DNA of 64,000 nucleotides from contig JBGVTE010000091.1 in the NCBI GenBank assembly GCA_041862375.1, forward strand, positions 18,975 through 82,974. The letters run 5' to 3'. The DNA is from Candidatus Aminicenantaceae bacterium (lineage in GTDB: Bacteria; Acidobacteriota; Aminicenantia; Aminicenantales; Aminicenantaceae). A model generated the notes under the pieces. The model made no database searches. It was not told where the DNA came from and saw nothing but the letters and a program-made list of their open reading frames with translations. Shown one piece after another: positions 2,120-55,200 of this stretch (its first letter is position 1; each line of letters begins with the position of its first letter). The position numbers and the translations under genes are program-made.

Positions 2120-3628
2120 TTAAAGAATAGGAACCATCTCCAATTCTTTATCTTCTTTCCTTTTTTTTCTGAGTGATGTGTCAATGATTTCCCCCAAGAT
2201 TTTTATTCCCTCCTCAATCTTTTCCGGTGGAACGGCTGCAAAGCAGAGTCTCATCTCATTTTTCCCGCAGGATGAATTGTAAAAAAGATTTCCTAAACTG
2301 AAGCTGATGCCGCGTTTCATACTTTCTTCATACACCGGTCTCAGATCGACATCCTCAGGAAATTTAACCCAAATAAAGAGTCCGCCTTCAGGCTTTAGTA
2401 CTTCAACGGTTTTTGGAAAATATTCATGGATACATCTTATTATCGTATCCCTTCTCTCCCTGTATATTTTTCTTATTCTTCGGAGGTGAGTTTTCAGATA
2501 ACCTCTGGAATAGAATTTATAAAGGATGGCTTGGGAAATGGTGTTCGTAGCCAAATCTTCAACCTGCTTGAGAGCTATGAATTTGTCTCTTATGGACTCA
2601 TTCAGAACAGCCCATCCGACTCTGAACCCAGGTATCAATTCTTTTGATAAGGAATTTATGTAGATAACCTGATCTGTTCTATCCAAGGCTTTTAAAGGAG
2701 GCAATTCTTCACCTTCAAACCGTAAATCTCCGCTCACATCATCCTCGAGAATGGGAACATTGTATCTTTCGGCAAGAAAGATTACTTTTTTCCTCTTGCT
2801 CATACTCATTGTAACACCGGTGGGATTCTGAAAATTGGGTATCGTAAAAAGAAATTTTGGTTCGTATTTTCTTAACACCTCTTCAAGAGTGTCAGTATTC
2901 AGACCATCTCTTTCCATAGGTATTCCGATAATTTTAGCTTTGAGTGTATTAAGAATGCTCAATATCCCCGTGTATGTGGGCTCTTCAGTGACAACATAAT
3001 CTCCTGCCTCGATAAGAATTCTCGAGGTAATCTCAAGTGCTTGCTGGGATCCACTCGTGATGAATATGTTTTCGACAGTCGTTTCTACTCCCATATTTCT
3101 CATCTTCTTCTCCAAAGATTCCCTTAAAGGCAAGAATCCTTCAACCGGCCCGTAGCGAAAAATTTCGCTCTTTTCTTCCTTCAACACTGAGCTAAAACAT
3201 CTTTTAACTAAATCAACGGGATAGAGCTCATCATCAGGATGAGCGCCTCCAAACGAGATTTTCATCTTTGATATGCATGTTCTGTACAATTGGACTAGAG
3301 AAAATAAGGCATTATCATCCAACTCAGAGGAAAGGAAATTAGACCAATTGAACTTTCTATGGAACGATTTTCCAGTTCTGTCAACATGCACATTCATATC
3401 TGATACAAAGGTTCCCTTACCTACATGAGAATAGACCAATCCGTCTGCCTCAAGTTCTTCATAAGCTGTTAGGACTGTATTCCTGTTAATTTTCAGATTT
3501 TCAGCGAGATTTCTCGATGGAGGAAGCTTTGTATCCGGTCTGAAAACACCTGATATAATCAATTTTTTAATTTGATTTCTCAATTGGATATAATAAGGAA
3601 CATTTGATTCTCTATCGATGGTTATCAT
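2120..3628 (-). CDS. MocR/GntR-family transcriptional regulator fused to PLP-dependent aminotransferase-like domain
   Basis: N-terminal GntR winged-HTH (VPYYIQLRNQIKKLIISG...LPPSRNLAENLKINRNTVLTAYEEL) is followed by an aminotransferase class I/II fold. Transcribed divergently from the PAD-like gene. Confidence 0.8.
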   Translation of the reverse strand: MITIDRESNVPYYIQLRNQIKKLIISGVFRPDTKLPPSRNLAENLKINRNTVLTAYEELEADGLVYSHVGKGTFVSDMNVHVDRTGKSFHRKFNWSNFLSSELDDNALFSLVQLYRTCISKMKISFGGAHPDDELYPVDLVKRCFSSVLKEEKSEIFRYGPVEGFLPLRESLEKKMRNMGVETTVENIFITSGSQQALEITSRILIEAGDYVVTEEPTYTGILSILNTLKAKIIGIPMERDGLNTDTLEEVLRKYEPKFLFTIPNFQNPTGVTMSMSKRKKVIFLAERYNVPILEDDVSGDLRFEGEELPPLKALDRTDQVIYINSLSKELIPGFRVGWAVLNESIRDKFIALKQVEDLATNTISQAILYKFYSRGYLKTHLRRIRKIYRERRDTIIRCIHEYFPKTVEVLKPEGGLFIWVKFPEDVDLRPVYEESMKRGISFSLGNLFYNSSCGKNEMRLCFAAVPPEKIEEGIKILGEIIDTSLRKKRKEDKELEMVPIL

Positions 3629-4019: not shown

Positions 4020-5774
4020 ATGAAATACTTCCGAAAGGATAATGTAATGATCCGTACATTACGTTCAAAAAATCAATCGAATAGCCGGCTTTTTCTTGTT
4101 TTTATGGTCGGATTGGCGATTTTTTTGTCTCAGGTCTTGGTCTGCAAAAAATCTGAGCCAAGCAAGGTTCAGATCACTACTGATGTTAACAGGGATGGAA
4201 AGGTTGAATTCAGAACGGATAAGCAGGGGAAAAACGAATGGACTCCTGAGCGAGGAGCTATTTTCCTTAATAACAATGACAGTGACCAGGACACAAATGA
4301 GCCCGACTATGCTGATGATGTTATTAATGGACAGGAAGACATTAAAGATCTTTCAGTCATCAAGATCAGACAAATCCATGATCTGCCGGAGGATTCTCAA
4401 GTTGATATTTCTGTCGACGAAGCATCCATGTCCCGGGTTCGCTTATTCGTGAAGACAGCAAAAAATGAGTATAAAAACCTAACTTTATCAGCTAAATCCA
4501 ATATAAATCCTGCACAGTTGAGAAATGGTGACCTGGAACTGAGAATAGAAGCAAATTCCTATGCGGACAGCACCTGGACCGGTGAAACGACTGTTACACT
4601 CACTGTGAACCGTCCCGATGGAGAAACAGAATCCGACGCAATCATGCTCAAAGTCGCCCCGTTCATTCTACTGTCCAACCTCAATAAGGGAAGTGCTCTT
4701 TATGTGAGAGAATTCCCTGGGAGGAATGACTCTTTCCTGGAGAGTCTGAGGGAGCTTTTACCCGCTGCCGGTGCTGAGTTGGTTGTGGTCCCTGCGGGAG
4801 ATCCCTATCCTCCCCATCAAATATGGCTCCAGGACGCTCTGGAGATTGGCTACTCGGAGATCCCGGGTCATAAGATGAATGTGGTTTTAAAAGCCAACCG
4901 CGGCAGGCCTCTCGATGATTATGCAAAGCAAGAGCTCATGGGGCCTGATTTCGGCTGGATCCAAGTCGGAACATTCCGAAAAGACTACGGTGGGGGAAGG
5001 CGCAGCAACGGCTGGCTGGACTGGTATGGAAACCTGGAAGTCACCCCGCCATTACCCGGATATCCATTCGGCCGGTTTTACTGCGGATACAATCCGGATG
5101 GACCTGAAGAGGCATCTTTGAATCCAGAGATCATTAGTATGCTCGAAGCTCAAAAAATCCAGGGCCCTGCATTACGTCTCGATACAGGATGGCTGCTGAT
5201 AAAACACGTAGACGAAGTTATATCCTTCCTGCCCAGCGGTAATCCTGAACGTCCTTACAAAGTCCTTGTTGTTGATACAGGGTCCATGATTGCCCTACTT
5301 GAAAAATGGATGGAAGAAGGACATGGCGAAACACAGATGCTTGGTCTCTCTTCCAAAAAAATGACCATAAAAGCCCTCTATGAAAATAAAGAGCTCATGG
5401 AACTGAATAAATCTCTTCAAAAGGCACGAATCGAACCGAATATCGATCTTCTCAAAAGTGAGCTGCGCCTGGTGGAGGAGGATTTTATCAGAGTACCTAT
5501 CCTCATTGATAAGTATGGAACCGCTGTCGTTCCCAACATGGTCAATTCCACAATTCTGAATGGACATATCCTGATTGTTGCTCCCAACGGCCCTGAGATA
5601 GATGGAAAAGACCAACTAGAAGAGGAGATGCGCAGGCTCCTTTCTGGCCTGCCATTAAAACTGCACTTTCTAGATGCAATCCTCTATCACAATTGGGGAG
5701 GTGAAGTCCACTGCGCTACAAATGTGAGACGCGATGGATTTCAAACTCCGTGGTGGACCATAAAACACCCATAG
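4020..5774 (+). CDS. Secreted/membrane-anchored protein-arginine deiminase (PAD) family homologue
   Basis: The C-terminus GGEVHCATNVRRDGFQTPWW matches the catalytic-Cys region of vertebrate PADs (GEVHCGTNVRR..F..WW). The blocks WLQDALEIGY and MGPDFGW resemble PAD WMQDEMEIGY / MGPDFGY. N-terminal hydrophobic signal/anchor (LFLVFMVGLAIFLSQVLVC). An alternative start is at 4047. Confidence 0.6.
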   Translation: MKYFRKDNVMIRTLRSKNQSNSRLFLVFMVGLAIFLSQVLVCKKSEPSKVQITTDVNRDGKVEFRTDKQGKNEWTPERGAIFLNNNDSDQDTNEPDYADDVINGQEDIKDLSVIKIRQIHDLPEDSQVDISVDEASMSRVRLFVKTAKNEYKNLTLSAKSNINPAQLRNGDLELRIEANSYADSTWTGETTVTLTVNRPDGETESDAIMLKVAPFILLSNLNKGSALYVREFPGRNDSFLESLRELLPAAGAELVVVPAGDPYPPHQIWLQDALEIGYSEIPGHKMNVVLKANRGRPLDDYAKQELMGPDFGWIQVGTFRKDYGGGRRSNGWLDWYGNLEVTPPLPGYPFGRFYCGYNPDGPEEASLNPEIISMLEAQKIQGPALRLDTGWLLIKHVDEVISFLPSGNPERPYKVLVVDTGSMIALLEKWMEEGHGETQMLGLSSKKMTIKALYENKELMELNKSLQKARIEPNIDLLKSELRLVEEDFIRVPILIDKYGTAVVPNMVNSTILNGHILIVAPNGPEIDGKDQLEEEMRRLLSGLPLKLHFLDAILYHNWGGEVHCATNVRRDGFQTPWWTIKHP

Positions 5775-6133: not shown

Positions 6134-6247
6134 TATCGGCATGGAGTGAATCCTCTTCTTCAGATGAGGTTGTTGAAACTAAATGGAGACTGGGATGCTT
6201 ATTGGGATGAAAGAAAAGAGGAGGTAGCTCGATATGCAGCTTAAATG

Positions 6248-6271
6248 CCATCACGGAAAAAAAGATGCTTC
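6248..6271. repeat. Solo copy of the CATCACGGAAAAAAAGATGCTTCC repeat
   Basis: catcacggaaaaaaagatgcttcc. Same 24-mer family as 51213-51234 and the ends of the 54828-55117 element. Confidence 0.45.
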
Positions 6272-6464
6272 CAATTCACAGCAACTGAATATGAAAATTT
6301 ATCTTTTTTTACTAATACACATTTATAAATCTAATAAAACTACCTCCTAAAAATGGATTATTTTTATAAAACAAACATTCAATTCTTGAACTAAGGGCTA
6401 ATTTATAATTTTTAATTCATAGAAAACAAAAATGTTCAAAGAAAGGCATTATCACTTTAATCGT

Positions 6465-12470: not shown

Positions 12471-12512
12471 AATTTATAAAAGTTATGAAAGTTATGAAAG
12501 CCTGACCCCAAT
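12471..12512. repeat. Solo arm of the GGGGTCAGGCTTT-terminated MITE-like repeat, with internal TTATGAAAG duplication
   Basis: The sequence aatttataaaagttatgaaagttatgaaagcctgaccccaat matches the arms of the 42268-42389 palindrome. It ends 1 bp before the -35 at 12514. Confidence 0.5.
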
Positions 12513-12513
12513 G

Positions 12514-12541
12514 TTGACTTGGCGGTTAAGAGTGATACAAT
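12514..12541 (+). promoter_or_regulatory. Sigma-70-like promoter TTGACT-16-TACAAT
   Basis: TTGACT at 12514-12519, a 16-nt spacer, then TACAAT at 12536-12541. The arsA-like ATG is at 12557. Confidence 0.45.
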
Positions 12542-12556
12542 AATTTTAAAGGCCCG

Positions 12557-13717
12557 ATGCGTATCATACTATTTACTGGAAAAGGTGGAGTCGGCAAAAC
12601 AACTCTGGCTGCGGCGACAGCTCTTCTCTCTGCAAAAAAAGGATATAAAACCCTGATTATTTCCACAGATGCAGCTCACAGTTTATCTGACTCATTTGAA
12701 ATCCAGCTCTCCAATACTCCTAAAAAAATCTTCACAAACCTGTACGGCCAAGAGATTAGTGCTCTAGAAGAAATGGAAAAAAAATGGGGGAAAATCCAAA
12801 ACTACCTTACTGAACTTTTTGCCTCTCAAGGAATAAGCTCAATAGAGGCTGAAGAGATGAGTGTTTTCCCCGGTATGGAAGAACTCTTTAGTCTTATGGA
12901 AATTCGCAATTTCAACAGTACTTCAGAATTCGATGTCATCATTGTTGACTGTGCTCCAACCGGTGATACGTTAAGGCTCTTGAGCGCTCCTGAAATAACC
13001 AATTGGTATCTCAAGCACATATTTCCTATCCAAAGGACAGCTGCGAAGGCAGTAAGACCTGTTGCAAGCCGATTGCTCCCGTTTCCTTTCCCTGAAGATC
13101 AGATATTCGAGGAGATGAAAAAATTGTCCACTCAACTGGCAGAAATGAAGGAAATTCTTGAAGATAAAAAGAAATCTTCGATTCGTCTTGTTGTAAATCC
13201 CGAAAAAATGGTCATTAAAGAAGCTCAAAGAGCATTTACCTTTTTTAACCTTTTTGGCTATGCAGTTGATCTAATCATCGTCAACCGCATTATTCCCCAT
13301 GGAGTTAAAGATAGTTATTTCAGCCAGTGGAAGACAATCCAGAAAAATTATCTGCTAATGATCCAAGAAATATTCTCGCCTCTCCCCATATTCTCTTCAA
13401 ATCTCTTTGACCGAGAGGTAATCGGCAGCAATCTACTCCAAAAAATGGCTGAAAATGTCTACGGAAACAAAGACCCGACTCAACTATTCTTCTCACAAAA
13501 ACCTATAACCATAGAAAAAGAAAACAGTGGATTTGTATTATCCTTGAATTTGCCTTTTGTTGAAAAAAAAGACCTGGATTTATATCAAAAGGGAGAAGAG
13601 TTGCTCATCAAAGTGGGAAATTTTAAAAGGAACATCCTTTTGCCGAGAACTCTTCTTCACTATTCTATAAAAGGAGCCAAATTTGAGAATATGAAACTTA
13701 GAATACATTTCAGCTAA
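12557..13717 (+). CDS. ArsA/GET3-family anion-transporting ATPase with C-terminal HSP20-like (ArsA_HSP20) domain
   Basis: P-loop GKGGVGKTT. ArsA-type DCAPTGDT switch motif. The last ~80 aa (ITIEKENSGFVLSLNLPF...KRNILLPR) look like an alpha-crystallin/HSP20-like beta-sandwich. Confidence 0.75.
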   Translation: MRIILFTGKGGVGKTTLAAATALLSAKKGYKTLIISTDAAHSLSDSFEIQLSNTPKKIFTNLYGQEISALEEMEKKWGKIQNYLTELFASQGISSIEAEEMSVFPGMEELFSLMEIRNFNSTSEFDVIIVDCAPTGDTLRLLSAPEITNWYLKHIFPIQRTAAKAVRPVASRLLPFPFPEDQIFEEMKKLSTQLAEMKEILEDKKKSSIRLVVNPEKMVIKEAQRAFTFFNLFGYAVDLIIVNRIIPHGVKDSYFSQWKTIQKNYLLMIQEIFSPLPIFSSNLFDREVIGSNLLQKMAENVYGNKDPTQLFFSQKPITIEKENSGFVLSLNLPFVEKKDLDLYQKGEELLIKVGNFKRNILLPRTLLHYSIKGAKFENMKLRIHFS

Positions 13718-21480: not shown

Positions 21481-21734
21481 TTTTCTATCCTGAGAGAAAA
21501 CATGGATTTTAATTTCCCTAATTCTATATCAGAATGCTGGCTTTGACAAGAAAAAAATAACTGTAATCATCTATTTTTCCGTGATTAGAGATGAAGCAGT
21601 CATCAGCAAGGAGGTATGCGGCTTCCCTGATTGTCAATTATGAATACATTTCATCATTAATAGCAATTAAATATTCTTTTAACGAAAAATCCCATAGACA
21701 GGAAGACAAGTGAGACGAAATAGACTGTTTCATT

Positions 21735-34541: not shown

Positions 34542-34613
34542 GGGCCTATAGCTCAGCGGTAGAGCCACCGGCTCATAACCGGCAGGTCCCAGGTTCGAAT
34601 CCTGGTAGGCCCA
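34542..34613 (+). tRNA. tRNA with CAT anticodon (elongator tRNA-Met or lysidine tRNA-Ile2)
   Basis: GGGCCTATAGCTCAGCGGTAGAGCCACCGGCTCATAACCGGCAGGTCCCAGGTTCGAATCCTGGTAGGCCCA. Acceptor GGGCCTA/TAGGCCC with G1-C72 paired, so not initiator. Anticodon loop CTCATAA. T-arm CCAGG-TTCGAAT-CCTGG. Confidence 0.85.
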
Positions 34614-39747: not shown

Positions 39748-42162
<2,415 letters not shown>

Positions 42163-42267
42163 TTATGTGTGCGGGAATTTTACATAACCCGTTGGGCATA
42201 ATATCCGGTGTCATTATACCTTAAGAACAAATCTTAGTAAAGTAAAATCATTGCTTTTTTTAGTACT

Positions 42268-42389
42268 TTGGGGTCAGGCTTTCATAAGTTTTATAAATTG
42301 AATTTTTTCTAATCTTTCATTGTAACCCTAGCTTTTATTTCTTCCTGGTAAACAATAAATTATAAAAGTTATGAAAGCCTGACCCCAAT
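42268..42389. repeat. ~122-bp palindromic MITE-like element with ~31-bp terminal inverted repeats ending in GGGGTCAGGCTTT / AAAGCCTGACCCC
   Basis: The arm ttggggtcaggctttcataagttttataaatt at 42268-42299 is inverted at 42357-42389 with 1-2 mismatches. Located in the gyrB / DRG-GTPase divergent intergenic region. Its right end is 5 bp from the -35 at 42395. Confidence 0.55.
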
Positions 42390-42394
42390 TACCT

Positions 42395-42423
42395 TTGAAA
42401 ACCAGTCTATGTTCAGCTATAAT
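42395..42423 (+). promoter_or_regulatory. Sigma-70-like promoter TTGAAA-17-TATAAT
   Basis: TTGAAA at 42395-42400, a 17-nt spacer, then TATAAT at 42418-42423. It lies inside the ORF-track start (42409), so the true start is likely the ATG at 42442. Confidence 0.45.
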
Positions 42424-42441: not shown

Positions 42442-43434
42442 ATGCCAGCAAATTTGCCACCTCAGTACTTTGAGACAGAGAAAAAATTAAAAGTAGCAAA
42501 AACCCCGCAGGAAAAGATTAGAATTCTAGAAGAACTACTCTCCATAGTTCCCAAACACAAAGGCACAGAAAAGCTACAAGCCTTGCTAAAAACGAAAATT
42601 GCAAAACTTAAATCTACAGCTCAAAAAAAACCCTCTATAGCCAGGCACAGTTCTCTACACCGTGTGGAGAGATCTGGAGCAGGTCAAATAATCTTAATTG
42701 GGCCACCGAATAGTGGCAAATCCATGTTGGTTAAATCCCTGACAAATGCAACCCCTGAAATCGGTGAATATCCCTTCACAACTCGCTTGCCATATCCTGC
42801 CATGATGGAGTATGAAAACATCAAGATTCAACTCGTCGATACTCCCCCTGTTACGCCAGAATACATGGAGAGCTGGCTTCTAGAGATGATAAAAGAATCC
42901 GATGGAATCTTGATTCTTCTGGATTTGTCTGATTCCAGCCCTATAAACACTTTAAAAGTCCTTCTTTCTGGGCTTAAAGAAAAGAAAATAGAACTAATCT
43001 CAGAAAAAGAAAAAACTATAGAGACAGAAGTAAGATTTTTTCCAAAAAGAGCGCTGGTTGTCGCTAATAAAAAAGATGTGCTTCTTAATGATAATGACTT
43101 TACAACCCTGAAAGGATTCTGCAAAGGAAAATTCAACCTCATCTCTCTATCTGCCCTTCATAGAGATGGTCTTGATGAACTTAGAAAGCATATTTTTCTC
43201 ATGCTTGATGTCATTCGCGTGTATAGTAAAATCCCGGGGAAAAAAGCAGACCTGAATGCTCCTTATACCCTGAAGAGAGGAAGCTCAGTACTCGATATGG
43301 CTAGAGAAGTCCACAAGGATTTTACCCAAAAACTAAAATACGCAAGGATCTGGAGTAAGAATAAATACCAAGGCCAGATGGTCAACCGAGACCACATCCT
43401 CGAAGACGAAGATATTCTCGAACTTCATATATAA
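42442..43434 (+). CDS. DRG/Rbg-type (archaeal/eukaryotic-like) GTPase with C-terminal TGS domain
   Basis: N-terminal LQALLKTKIAKLKS resembles the DRG helix YHLGLLKAKLAKLR. G1 is GPPNSGKSMLVKSLTNA. The block EIGEYPFTTRLPYPAMMEYENIKIQLVDTPP matches DRG [31 protein letters not shown]. C-terminal TGS-like IRVYSKIPG...ARIWSKNKYQGQMVNRDHILEDEDILEL. Confidence 0.55.
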   Translation: MPANLPPQYFETEKKLKVAKTPQEKIRILEELLSIVPKHKGTEKLQALLKTKIAKLKSTAQKKPSIARHSSLHRVERSGAGQIILIGPPNSGKSMLVKSLTNATPEIGEYPFTTRLPYPAMMEYENIKIQLVDTPPVTPEYMESWLLEMIKESDGILILLDLSDSSPINTLKVLLSGLKEKKIELISEKEKTIETEVRFFPKRALVVANKKDVLLNDNDFTTLKGFCKGKFNLISLSALHRDGLDELRKHIFLMLDVIRVYSKIPGKKADLNAPYTLKRGSSVLDMAREVHKDFTQKLKYARIWSKNKYQGQMVNRDHILEDEDILELHI

Positions 43435-51077: not shown

Positions 51078-51212
51078 TCTTCATGATCTGTCAAATTGTT
51101 GAAAATTTTACTTTTTTACTAAAGGGAGCATCCCGATTTCAGTAATTGCCAACGTTTATTCACCTCACTTGAAAGTCTTTGGATACGGTTGAAGAGAAAA
51201 AGGCGTAATTTT

Positions 51213-51234
51213 CATCACGGAAAAAAAGATGCTT
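51213..51234. repeat. Solo copy of the CATCACGGAAAAAAAGATGCTT repeat with an adjacent partial element (51150-51212)
   Basis: catcacggaaaaaaagatgctt. The upstream ggatacggttgaagagaaaaaggcg resembles 54884-54910 inside the composite element. Confidence 0.45.
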
Positions 51235-51601
51235 ACTTATTATTTTTGCAATTTTTTTATAAATCAATACAATAGAGTTTATTTCAGTTCAAGCTAAAAT
51301 ATTTTTTTATCAGTCAAATTTATCTCGAAAAAGGAGGAAGAAGTAAAAACACCACTTCATTAAAAGAAAAAACGCCGCTCTTGCCTATAGGTGGGATATG
51401 CTTTACCACAGATAGAAATCTAGACGAGTAAAAAAGTGACTCATTGATTTGATTTCGTAATTTTGATACCTTGTTTTTGACTTGAATATCCCTGGGATAA
51501 GGATTTATCATGAAAAAATGCCAAGGAGTAACATTGAAGCCCTCAACTAATATGGATAGAAAAGCTTGATTCCAATAATATTGATTTACAAAGGAGGTGC
51601 A

Positions 51602-54792: not shown

Positions 54793-54827
54793 CAATACTC
54801 ACGCAACATTCATAGAGAATAAGAAAT

Positions 54828-55117
54828 GGAAGCATCTTTTTTCCCATGATGAAAATTAAAATAGTCATTAAGCGATGGGCATACGGCTTGAAGGCACGCT
54901 CGCTTTGCCCCAGCAAGTCAAAGCGGCTCGATTCAAGCTTCGCTCTTCTCTCGGGGTCAGGCTTTGTCATTATGGTGAGCATTGGAATATTTTTATGCTT
55001 TGGGCATCTTTTCGTAATAAAGCCTGACCCCAGAACCATGCCCGCTCAGCCTTCATACGACCTTCTTCACCGTATGCCCACGCTTGTCTTTCCTTATCAC
55101 GGAAAAAAGATGCGGAC
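54828..55117. repeat. ~290-bp composite repeat element with outer inverted repeats and a nested GGGGTCAGGCTTT...AAAGCCTGACCCC palindrome
   Basis: Left end is ggaagcatcttttttcccatgatg (54828-54851) and right end is atcacggaaaaaagatgcggac (55096-55117). Inner inverted repeat at 54962-54974 / 55028-55040. Confidence 0.5.
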
Positions 55118-55200
55118 GCAAGAAATATAATGTTGATTTTTTTTAAAAACCTATATATTGTAGGCGTATCAAAATTGACGAGGGATTCAGGAAAAAACTC

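Follow-up and report, generated by a model that had tools for sequence, protein, structure and literature searches.

A palindromic doublet of terminal inverted repeats between gyrB and a GTPase gene

We analyzed a 64,000-nucleotide stretch of a Candidatus Aminicenantaceae genome (contig JBGVTE010000091.1; hereafter the window) and found that the 121-bp palindromic unit at window positions 42268-42388, in the spacer between gyrB and a GTPase gene, is probably a non-autonomous doublet of terminal inverted repeats (TIRs) of the TIRYT/'TIRtron' type. It is not a new regulatory device. A TIRtron is a unit of approximately 1 kb that consists of a Y1 (HUH) transposase gene, the product of which carries a C-terminal helix-turn-helix (HTH) like domain IV of DnaA, and of inverted repeats starting with GGGGWSAS (PMC3733652, PMC6006769). 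The names TIRYT, for the enzymes, and TIRtron, for the units, were coined by Di Nocera, De Gregorio and Rocco in 2013 (PMC3733652), who described genes resembling those of REP-associated tyrosine transposases (RAYTs; REP, repetitive extragenic palindrome) that are flanked by terminal inverted repeats, not REPs, many of them fitting GGGGWSAS, and who reported that some TIRs are moderately abundant repeat families present as singles, dimers or groups (PMC3733652). Quentin et al. (2018) placed the TIRYTs in TnpA_REP subclass 2.1, with Bac_DnaA_C/HTH C-termini, and remarked that GGGGWSAS is unlike a DnaA box (PMC6006769). All 3 long arms and both short arms in the window begin with GGGGTCAG, and because this sequence fits GGGGWSAS we take the element to be a dimer of a TIRYT-type TIR family. 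The class itself is already published; the host lineage and the copy number described here are absent from PMC3733652 and PMC6006769.

An earlier note on this DNA had described an element of approximately 122 bp with near-perfect inverted repeats of approximately 31 bp, and this element is real: it has 2 arms (42268-42299 and 42357-42388) of 32 nt each, which are 94% complementary and lie 57 nt apart. Folded as single-stranded DNA (ssDNA), the segment 42264-42392 reached -31.4 kcal/mol versus -8.5 ± 2.5 kcal/mol for shuffled sequences (z = -9.1; 0 of 200 shuffles as stable), so the hairpin that the note had proposed to look for is indeed predicted. Single arms folded no better than their shuffles (z = 0.28, -0.53 and 0.53) and are not self-complementary. 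The 27-nt arm pattern GGGGTCAGGCTTTCATAASTTTYATAA has 3 exact matches in the window, with none expected by chance, and the 13-mer GGGGTCAGGCTTT occurs exactly 5 times. The parts of the element are as follows.

42268-42299, plus strand: left arm (terminal inverted repeat), alignable with 11 TIRYT units at their 5' ends
42270-42278, plus strand: left-arm terminus GGGGTCAGG
42279-42287, plus strand: left-arm 9-mer CTTTCATAA
42288-42296, plus strand: second left-arm 9-mer GTTTTATAA
42298-42303, plus strand: inward-facing TTGAAT, overlapping the inner edge of the left arm
42300-42356: doublet interior, 57 nt of unique sequence with no open reading frame and no promoter-like site
42357-42388, minus strand: right arm, an inverted copy of the left arm with 2 mismatches in 32 nt
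12483-12509 (minus strand), 42270-42296 (plus strand) and 42360-42386 (minus strand): matches to GGGGTCAGGCTTTCATAASTTTYATAA in the exact pattern search of the window

We interpret the TTGAAT at 42298-42303 as what remains of a transposase gene's -35 box facing inward. The interior (42297-42359) gave no significant match among the interiors of other elements or elsewhere in the window, and the promoter scan found nothing promoter-like inside it. Searching the whole window against Rfam at gathering thresholds returned 2 tRNAs only and left the element unmatched, and a literature search for the 13-mer GGGGTCAGGCTTT gave no match.

The same ends bracket TIRYT genes

A single scan of 185,579 species genomes using the 18-mer GGGGTCAGGCTTTCATAA as query, in which copy numbers are lower bounds, matched at least 88 stretches. 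The genomes in which the 18-mer was found joined to a TIRYT gene belong to other phyla and are not that of the window. In a Desulfocapsa metagenome-assembled genome (MAG), inverted 18-mers bracket a unit of approximately 1 kb (L004, 1414-2423) that encodes a 314-aa protein with a Y1_Tnp domain (IS200-like HUH transposase) and a Bac_DnaA_C domain (Pfam E = 4e-16 and 6e-8, respectively). This partner enzyme also matched the NCBIfam family REP_Tyr_transpos (E = 3e-17), with a score under the family cut-off. Both inverted ends surround the TIRYT gene in L004, in a Desulfocapsaceae MAG (L062), in a Zetaproteobacteria MAG (L086) and in a metagenome contig (L094), the 5' end is present in a Clostridia MAG (L067, this end only) and 2 metagenome contigs (L095 and L096), and L076 carries a decayed, partly deleted TIRYT copy. 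We considered whether these matches outside the host phylum are due to chance, since we estimate that approximately 17 would be expected in 596 Gb; yet approximately 8 of the 17 loci have an adjacent TIRYT gene or extended arm similarity, and chance was rejected as the general explanation. Some of the single 18-mer matches in other phyla may be chance matches. Beyond these genomes, a looser metagenome scan (the stricter one is given below) yielded only 3 more TIRYT units, a scan of viral contigs gave no match, and plasmids contained only distant TIRYT relatives (30-38% identity).

A sample independent of the motif gave the same terminus. Four homologues (L099, L100, L102 and L103; 54-56% identity) were picked by protein similarity alone, 3 of them named Nitrospirae, Moraxellaceae and Competibacteraceae. 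All 4 have a (GGGG)TCAGGC terminus 54 nt before the ATG, with the exact GGGGTCAGGC in 3 of them and CCCGTCAGGC in L099, and a clear inverted copy overlaps the 3' end of the gene in 3 of the 4, the copy of L102 being degenerate. Positions 11-20 differ between units and match between the 2 ends of the same unit in 3 of the 4 (L099, L100 and L103). In the alignment of 11 TIRYT 5' ends with the 3 window arms GTCAGGC is invariant and the -35 box of the transposase gene occupies positions 21-26; the GGGGTCAGGC terminus is shared by the 11 units that were sampled from this transposase group. The Aminicenantes arm is the canonical TIRYT end GGGGTCAGG-CTTTCATAA-CTTGA... with its 9-mer tandemly duplicated.

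Two further observations concern these ends. The spacing between the first G of GGGGTCAGGC and the ATG is constant at approximately 54 nt in the 11 TIRYT units, which come from several phyla (L099-L103, L004, L062, L086 and L094-L096). Because one inverted repeat contains the -35 box (at positions 21-26) and the other the stop codon (TTATGAAAGCC), TIRYT ends and gene expression signals overlap. A Motiliproteus MAG (L001 at 6898 and L023 at 275) has its own arm variant, GGGGTCAGGCTTTCATAACTGGAT, one copy of which folds tightly around an 8-nt loop, which suggests that the 18-mer is shared by a separate gammaproteobacterial TIR family. As a candidate target of the HTH, we compared the 9-mer (reverse complement TTATGAAAG) with the DnaA box TTATNCACA. 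Only 5 of the 8 specified positions match, and since positions 11-20 differ among TIRYT lineages this candidate was downgraded.

The partner enzyme bears directly on whether the element could be a REPIN in the strict sense, that is, 2 inverted REP palindromes moved by a RAYT. An inverted doublet that forms a long hairpin, an extragenic location, a high copy number and a partner related to RAYTs (the REP_Tyr_transpos match mentioned above, below cut-off) would all fit a REPIN. However, the single arms are not self-complementary (z about 0), a GTAG or CGTC tag is missing, the partner is built like a TIRYT, with an HTH at its C-terminus, and the literature keeps TIR repeats apart from REPs (PMC6006769, PMC3733652), which makes this reading very improbable.

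The arms form a high-copy family in Aminicenantes genomes

Among the matches listed from the 18-mer scan, 30 were 8-kb chunks spread over the 4.43-Mb Ca. Aminicenantes chromosome CP070825.1 and 41 were contigs of the MAG CAZSPM01, with the repeat at the end of many of them. CAZSPM01 was deposited as 'uncultured Eubacteriales bacterium binchicken_co275_105', a label that looks wrong: because its proteins are 82-94% identical to those of CP070825.1 and its genes are syntenic, we consider it another Aminicenantes (G+C content 43% versus 42%). The 2 genomes contain at least 51 and at least 67 core motifs (at least 118 together); the earlier note had suggested a genome-wide count of the motif, and its occurrences in these 2 genomes show that it is not confined to the window loci. 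Together with the window, the core 13-mers number at least 123. The arm consensus is CAWT/GGGGTCAGG-CTTTCATAA-STTTYATAA-CTT (the slash marks the junction), and conservation across 104 arms of the 2 genomes covers CAWT/GGGGTCAGGCTTTCATAA[G/C]TTT[C/T]ATAACTT, ending approximately 30-34 nt in. The 30-nt consensus is matched at 28 or more positions by 77 of 120 arms.

Neighboring arms within 400 nt of each other form 42 pairs with GGGG outward, none in the opposite orientation and 5 in tandem, besides many singles. Because of this strong asymmetry (42 versus 0), the arms behave as the 2 ends of one unit. Aminicenantes units are 54-292 nt long, and their interiors are mostly unrelated, a shared interior being found only in one 93-nt subfamily. 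The arms are intergenic in 49 of 51 and 62 of 67 cases. No target-site duplication was detected in 43 pairs at offsets of 0-8 and lengths of 2-8, the counts being those of random re-pairing; instead, the flanks of arm pairs extend the palindrome as CAWT...AWTG.

These results bear on the proposal that the element is a classical miniature inverted-repeat transposable element (MITE), a deletion derivative of an insertion sequence (IS) with a DDE transposase that moves by cut-and-paste with target-site duplication. Like a MITE, the element has terminal inverted repeats, is small, non-coding, multi-copy and intergenic, and breaks assemblies. Yet the check for target-site duplications came out negative at any offset or length, the interiors are not conserved, and the sole coding unit with these ends among those examined encodes a Y1/HUH enzyme, so we give a classical MITE little credence. 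The earlier note's wider description of a MITE-like non-autonomous transposon survives in part: copies are numerous and dispersed, they show presence/absence, and they have the ends of a transposase unit, but the partner is a Y1/HUH (TIRYT) enzyme, not a DDE enzyme.

Elements at orthologous sites were ascertained on the arm and are uninformative on how frequently sites are shared between species. In some orthologues arms have decayed (the right arm in L014 and the left arm in L030). L079 (1859-2054) and L014 (6225-6420) share a 196-nt element with an inner hairpin module, approximately 97% alike by eye, whereas the sequence just upstream is approximately 88% alike; it is the right outer arm of this element that has decayed in L014. 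Between L016 (2867-2959) and L030 (approximately 4340-4435), the interior of a 93-nt element is reverse-complemented, apparently at the same site upstream of an orthologous gene, with different outer flanks; the interior may have flipped between the arms, or the insertions may be independent. In CAZSPM01, many of the interiors (L005, L026, L033, L035, L042, L049 and L088) contain a further repeat, GTCATTCCTGTG(A/T)AAGCAGGAATCCAG, presumably reminiscent of the dRS3-type repeats of Neisseria.

The L016/L030 pair also bears on the reading of the element as an inverton, whose arms would serve as recombination sites at which an invertase inverts the segment between them. Conserved inverted repeats around short variable segments upstream of genes would agree with that, as would an interior that is reverse-complemented at an apparently identical site, judged by the downstream gene that both genomes share. 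But the interior of the window doublet holds no promoter-like site, solo arms are common, the L016 and L030 flanks differ as well so that no clean inversion is seen, and the arms are homologous to the ends of transposase units. We regard an inverton as extremely unlikely.

The element was inserted between 2 pre-existing promoters

The genes flanking the element are those that the earlier note had named, gyrB and a DRG-GTPase gene, and the -35 hexamers that it placed beside the arms at 12513 and 42389 are real as well, starting 4 nt after CCCC and 6 nt past the arm, respectively. The genes and promoter-like sites are listed below.

39748-42135, minus strand: gyrB
42213-42241, minus strand: gyrB promoter-like site TTTACT-17-TATAAT, 26 nt from the left arm and not part of the element
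42395-42423, plus strand: GTPase promoter-like site TTGAAA-17-TATAAT (11 of 12 matches), 6 nt past the arm and not part of the element
42442-43434: DRG/TGS-type GTPase gene
12514-12541, plus strand: promoter-like site TTGACT-16-TACAAT of the ArsA-family gene, with TG upstream of the -10 box, 4 nt past the CCCC of the solo arm

Because the first ATG of the GTPase gene falls within the promoter spacer, its real start is the second in-frame ATG. The closest relatives compared (L089, L092 and L093; 73-78% identity in the GTPase) keep the gyrA-gyrB/GTPase synteny, and no arm was found in their gyrB/GTPase spacers even when 3 mismatches were allowed. All 3 keep the invariant gyrB -35 block TTTAGTAAAG and the GTPase -10 box (GCTATAAT, TATAAT); TTGAAA-17-TATAAT is kept in L089 and L092, and L093 has a weaker -35-like sequence (TTTAAA/TTTTTA). 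The comparison of orthologous spacers that the note had recommended thus reveals presence/absence of the element. Since 3 syntenic relatives keep the promoters without the element, it is a lineage-specific insertion between 2 pre-existing promoters, and it supplied no promoter to either the GTPase gene or gyrB. Moreover, the segment from -59 to -38 of the GTPase promoter (42371-42392, ATGAAAGCCTGACCCCAATTAC) has a G+C content of 45% and is unlike an UP element. Hence the suggestion that the repeat donates an UP element or promoter context is not supported on either count.

In the orthologous spacer of L092, at approximately 3420-3475, a different small hairpin repeat, related to the (T)CATCACGGAAAAAAAGATGCTTCC family described below, occupies the place where the window has the doublet; because of this second hairpin repeat, we regard the gyrB/GTPase spacer as a recurrent landing place. 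At the arsA site, the equivalent position in 2 relatives (82% identity) reads AAAAGTTAAA(A)G.TATAGACCTGACC, which overlaps their -35 box. This may be a decayed arm, though weakly supported, as 5-11 of 500 shuffles reach that score. In a further relative, at 76% identity, nothing is present at the arsA site and no arm in 21 kb.

The position of the doublet also speaks to an action at the RNA level, as a terminator, a stabilizer or a small RNA. The strong predicted hairpin and the many family members that lie 2-23 nt past stop codons would suit such a role. Against it, the doublet has no T-run and no terminator-like site, Rfam gave no match, and because it sits between 2 divergent -35 boxes neither promoter transcribes it; an RNA function is hardly credible here.

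Promoter proximity of the arms

Across the family, a promoter-like site was found in the flank of 23 of the 53 arms that face a gene start, and in 19 of these 23 arms with a recognizable promoter the -35 box starts at a distance of 1-19 nt from the arm. Where an arm faces the end of a gene, the stop codon is 2-23 nt away. On CP070825.1, the ratio of start-facing to end-facing arms is 34:13 (34 of 47), where the base-pair share of divergent plus tandem spacers predicts approximately 63% start-facing. Promoter targeting was considered as an explanation, but the 34:13 bias is near that share. Most simply, the few bases that can be spared between the next -35 box and a stop codon or divergent promoter would be the only places where insertions persist, and a target preference of the enzyme may contribute to promoter proximity. 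Of the earlier suggestion that the repeat targets promoter-proximal DNA, the adjacency of arms to -35 boxes therefore holds throughout the family (19 of 23), but arms are equally near stop codons, and targeting itself is inseparable from selection.

The same adjacency could mean that the arms have been co-opted as cis-regulatory sites, through which a DnaA-like HTH protein (a TIRYT or a derivative) would tune gyrB, the GTPase gene, arsA and dozens of genes. With 19 of 23 -35 boxes at 1-19 nt, the 9-mers would lie, by our estimate, approximately 50-70 nt upstream of the start site, a common activator zone; arms are intact at sites shared by 2 species; and the domain type of the transposase binds 9-bp boxes in DnaA (PMC6006769). 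On the other hand, relatives that lack the element have kept both the GTPase and the gyrB promoter, arms are equally close (2-23 nt) to stop codons, and they decay in L014 (right) and L030 (left). More than 100 copies are nearly identical over 30 nt, a pattern that copying typically produces and independent selection of operators does not, and the 9-mer is lineage-specific and not general to TIRYT ends. Taken together, this makes co-option improbable. We likewise doubt that Aminicenantes TIRYT ends have been domesticated as dispersed operator-like sites, at which the TIRYT HTH would bind the tandem 9-mers upstream of core promoters. Were this so, dozens of genes including gyrB and that of a ribosome-associated GTPase would be coupled to one transposase-derived regulator, and the duplication of the 9-mer would be an adaptation that raises occupancy.

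Proposed mechanism and points that weigh against it

If the element is a TIRYT-type doublet, a TIRYT gene located elsewhere in the genome would supply the enzyme that moved it, or still moves it, in trans. Binding of the double-stranded subterminal boxes, or of the lineage-specific subterminal segment, would fall to the HTH domain, and the HUH/Tyr domain would cut ssDNA at the conserved CAWT/GGGG junction. On ssDNA the doublet would form a long hairpin, as with the Y1 enzymes IS200/IS605 TnpA and RAYT. Because a Y1 enzyme would use this ssDNA route, no target-site duplication would be produced.

Several observations count against this interpretation. A tblastn search with 8 TIRYT proteins found no TIRYT gene in the 64-kb window or in approximately 430 kb of 2 related Aminicenantes genomes, and extending the window 5 kb past its left end with Logan contigs of the same organism revealed no further arm and no TIRYT. 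Scanning metagenomes for an Aminicenantes-type arm followed within 20-50 nt by ATGGCNMG gave no match. We infer the steps of mobilization in trans as ssDNA, cleavage and HTH recognition from the biochemistry of Y1/HUH enzymes, and PMC3733652 and PMC6006769 report no experiments on any TIRYT. Unrelated interiors are unusual for copies of one master element. Finally, some elements occupy the same site in 2 species whose flanking proteins differ by 6-18% and have kept their arms intact, which could reflect constraint rather than selfish spread.

Related repeats in the window

Two other sites in the window share the arm sequence or its terminus; copies of a second repeat family are listed with them.

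12471-12513, minus strand: solo member of the arm family, lying upstream of the gene for an ArsA-family ATPase (12557-13717)
12474-12482, 12483-12491 and 12492-12500: three tandem 9-mers of the solo arm, followed by the terminus CCTGACCCC (12501-12509) and the flank AATG
54953-55031: 79-nt hairpin module, related but distinct, between the Na:alanine symporter gene and psd
6246-6272, 21563-21586, 51211-51236, 54828-54852 and 55096-55117: copies of a second short repeat family, (T)CATCACGGAAAAAAAGATGCTTCC

The solo arm with an internal 9-bp duplication that had been placed near 12471-12512 is confirmed: 12474-12509 reads TTATAAAAG, TTATGAAAG, TTATGAAAG and then CCTGACCCC, which amounts to one extra 9-mer. 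The claimed recurrence of the arm at 54962-55040 is right for the 13-nt terminus only; the rest of the sequence differs and the true site is 54953-55031, approximately 9 nt off. In this module the 13-nt termini (54953-54965 and 55019-55031; GGGGTCAGGCTTT and AAAGCCTGACCCC) are the same as in the arms, and the subterminal sequences (GTCATTATGG... and ...CGTAAT) are different. The module folds at -18.1 kcal/mol (z = -5.9) and shows homology with the inner module of L079/L014 and L048.

The 408-nt spacer around this module (54793-55200), from the Na:alanine symporter gene to psd, is entirely a nested palindrome, with an outer inverted repeat (GCATCTTTTTTCCCATGAT, 54830-54850, and ATCACGGAAAAAAGATGC, 55097-55115), a middle one (TGGGCATACGG, 54876-54886, and CCGTATGCCCA, 55070-55080) and the GGGGTCAGGCTTT hairpin as the inner one. 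Another, independent assembly of this organism (Logan) is interrupted within it, at 55079. The (T)CATCACGGAAAAAAAGATGCTTCC family, with 5 copies in the window, resembles the subterminal part ATTACGAAAAGATGCC of the hairpin module. Immediately after the GGGGTCAGGCTTT hairpin comes a third repeat module, GAACCATGCCCGCTCAGCCTTCA(A/T)ACG (55033-55055), which also lies beside TIR elements in both other Aminicenantes genomes (L016 2970-2989, L030 4135-4157, L069, L087 and L048). The window further contains 2 direct repeats, 27431-27496/34429-34494 (66 nt, 88% identity) and 30214-30329/34121-34236 (116 nt, 72% identity), the downstream copies of which are just upstream of tRNA-Met (34542-34613). The tRNA-Met region is the sole nucleotide match between the window and CP070825.1 (78% over 520 nt).

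Significance and comparison with known systems

Aminicenantes are an added lineage with TIRYT ends at high copy, where published comparisons saw 'moderately abundant' families only. The ends have a three-part anatomy, consisting of the GGGGTCAGGC terminus found in all 11 units, the lineage-specific positions 11-20 and the transposase's own -35 box, and this makes recognition by the DnaA-like domain addressable as a binding experiment with defined oligonucleotides. The repeat also explains assembly breaks in these MAGs, and in annotation the palindrome beside the gyrB and GTPase promoters should not be labelled a regulatory site.

Classical bacterial MITEs, such as the Correia, RUP and Nezha elements, resemble the present element in having terminal inverted repeats, a size of approximately 100-300 bp, no coding capacity and a dispersed intergenic distribution. 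Because our element has no target-site duplication, no conserved interior shared among copies and no DDE-transposase parent, it falls outside the definition of a classical MITE. REPIN-RAYT systems, reportedly described by Bertels and Rainey in 2011, share with it the inverted doublets that form hairpins, the intergenic location, the high copy number, the lack of target-site duplication, the retention of some copies at orthologous sites and a Y1/HUH partner enzyme whose gene is flanked by the repeat. In those systems, however, every single REP is palindromic and carries a GTAG tag; the arms described here are non-palindromic with direct 9-mers, no GTAG or CGTC tag was found at their ends, and the partner enzyme has an extra C-terminal HTH. 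Being non-palindromic and without GTAG, the arms do not make the element a REP or REPIN as defined.

With IS200/IS605 elements (TnpA Y1) the system shares the Y1_Tnp catalytic fold, the lack of target-site duplication and presumably the ssDNA chemistry, but their ends are subterminal hairpins without terminal inverted repeats, unlike the true inverted repeats and the HTH-bearing enzyme found here (PMC6006769). The closest likeness is to the TIR families of TIRYT/TIRtron units: the GGGGWSAS terminus is the same, 18-mer ends bracket Y1_Tnp plus Bac_DnaA_C genes, arms are not self-complementary, and extragenic copies occur as singles, dimers and groups. Compared with the published TIRtron families, the family described here differs in its Aminicenantes host, in a copy number that is high for the class (at least 51 and at least 67 core motifs), in the subterminal tandem of 2 or 3 9-mers, and in the very variable interiors of its dimers.

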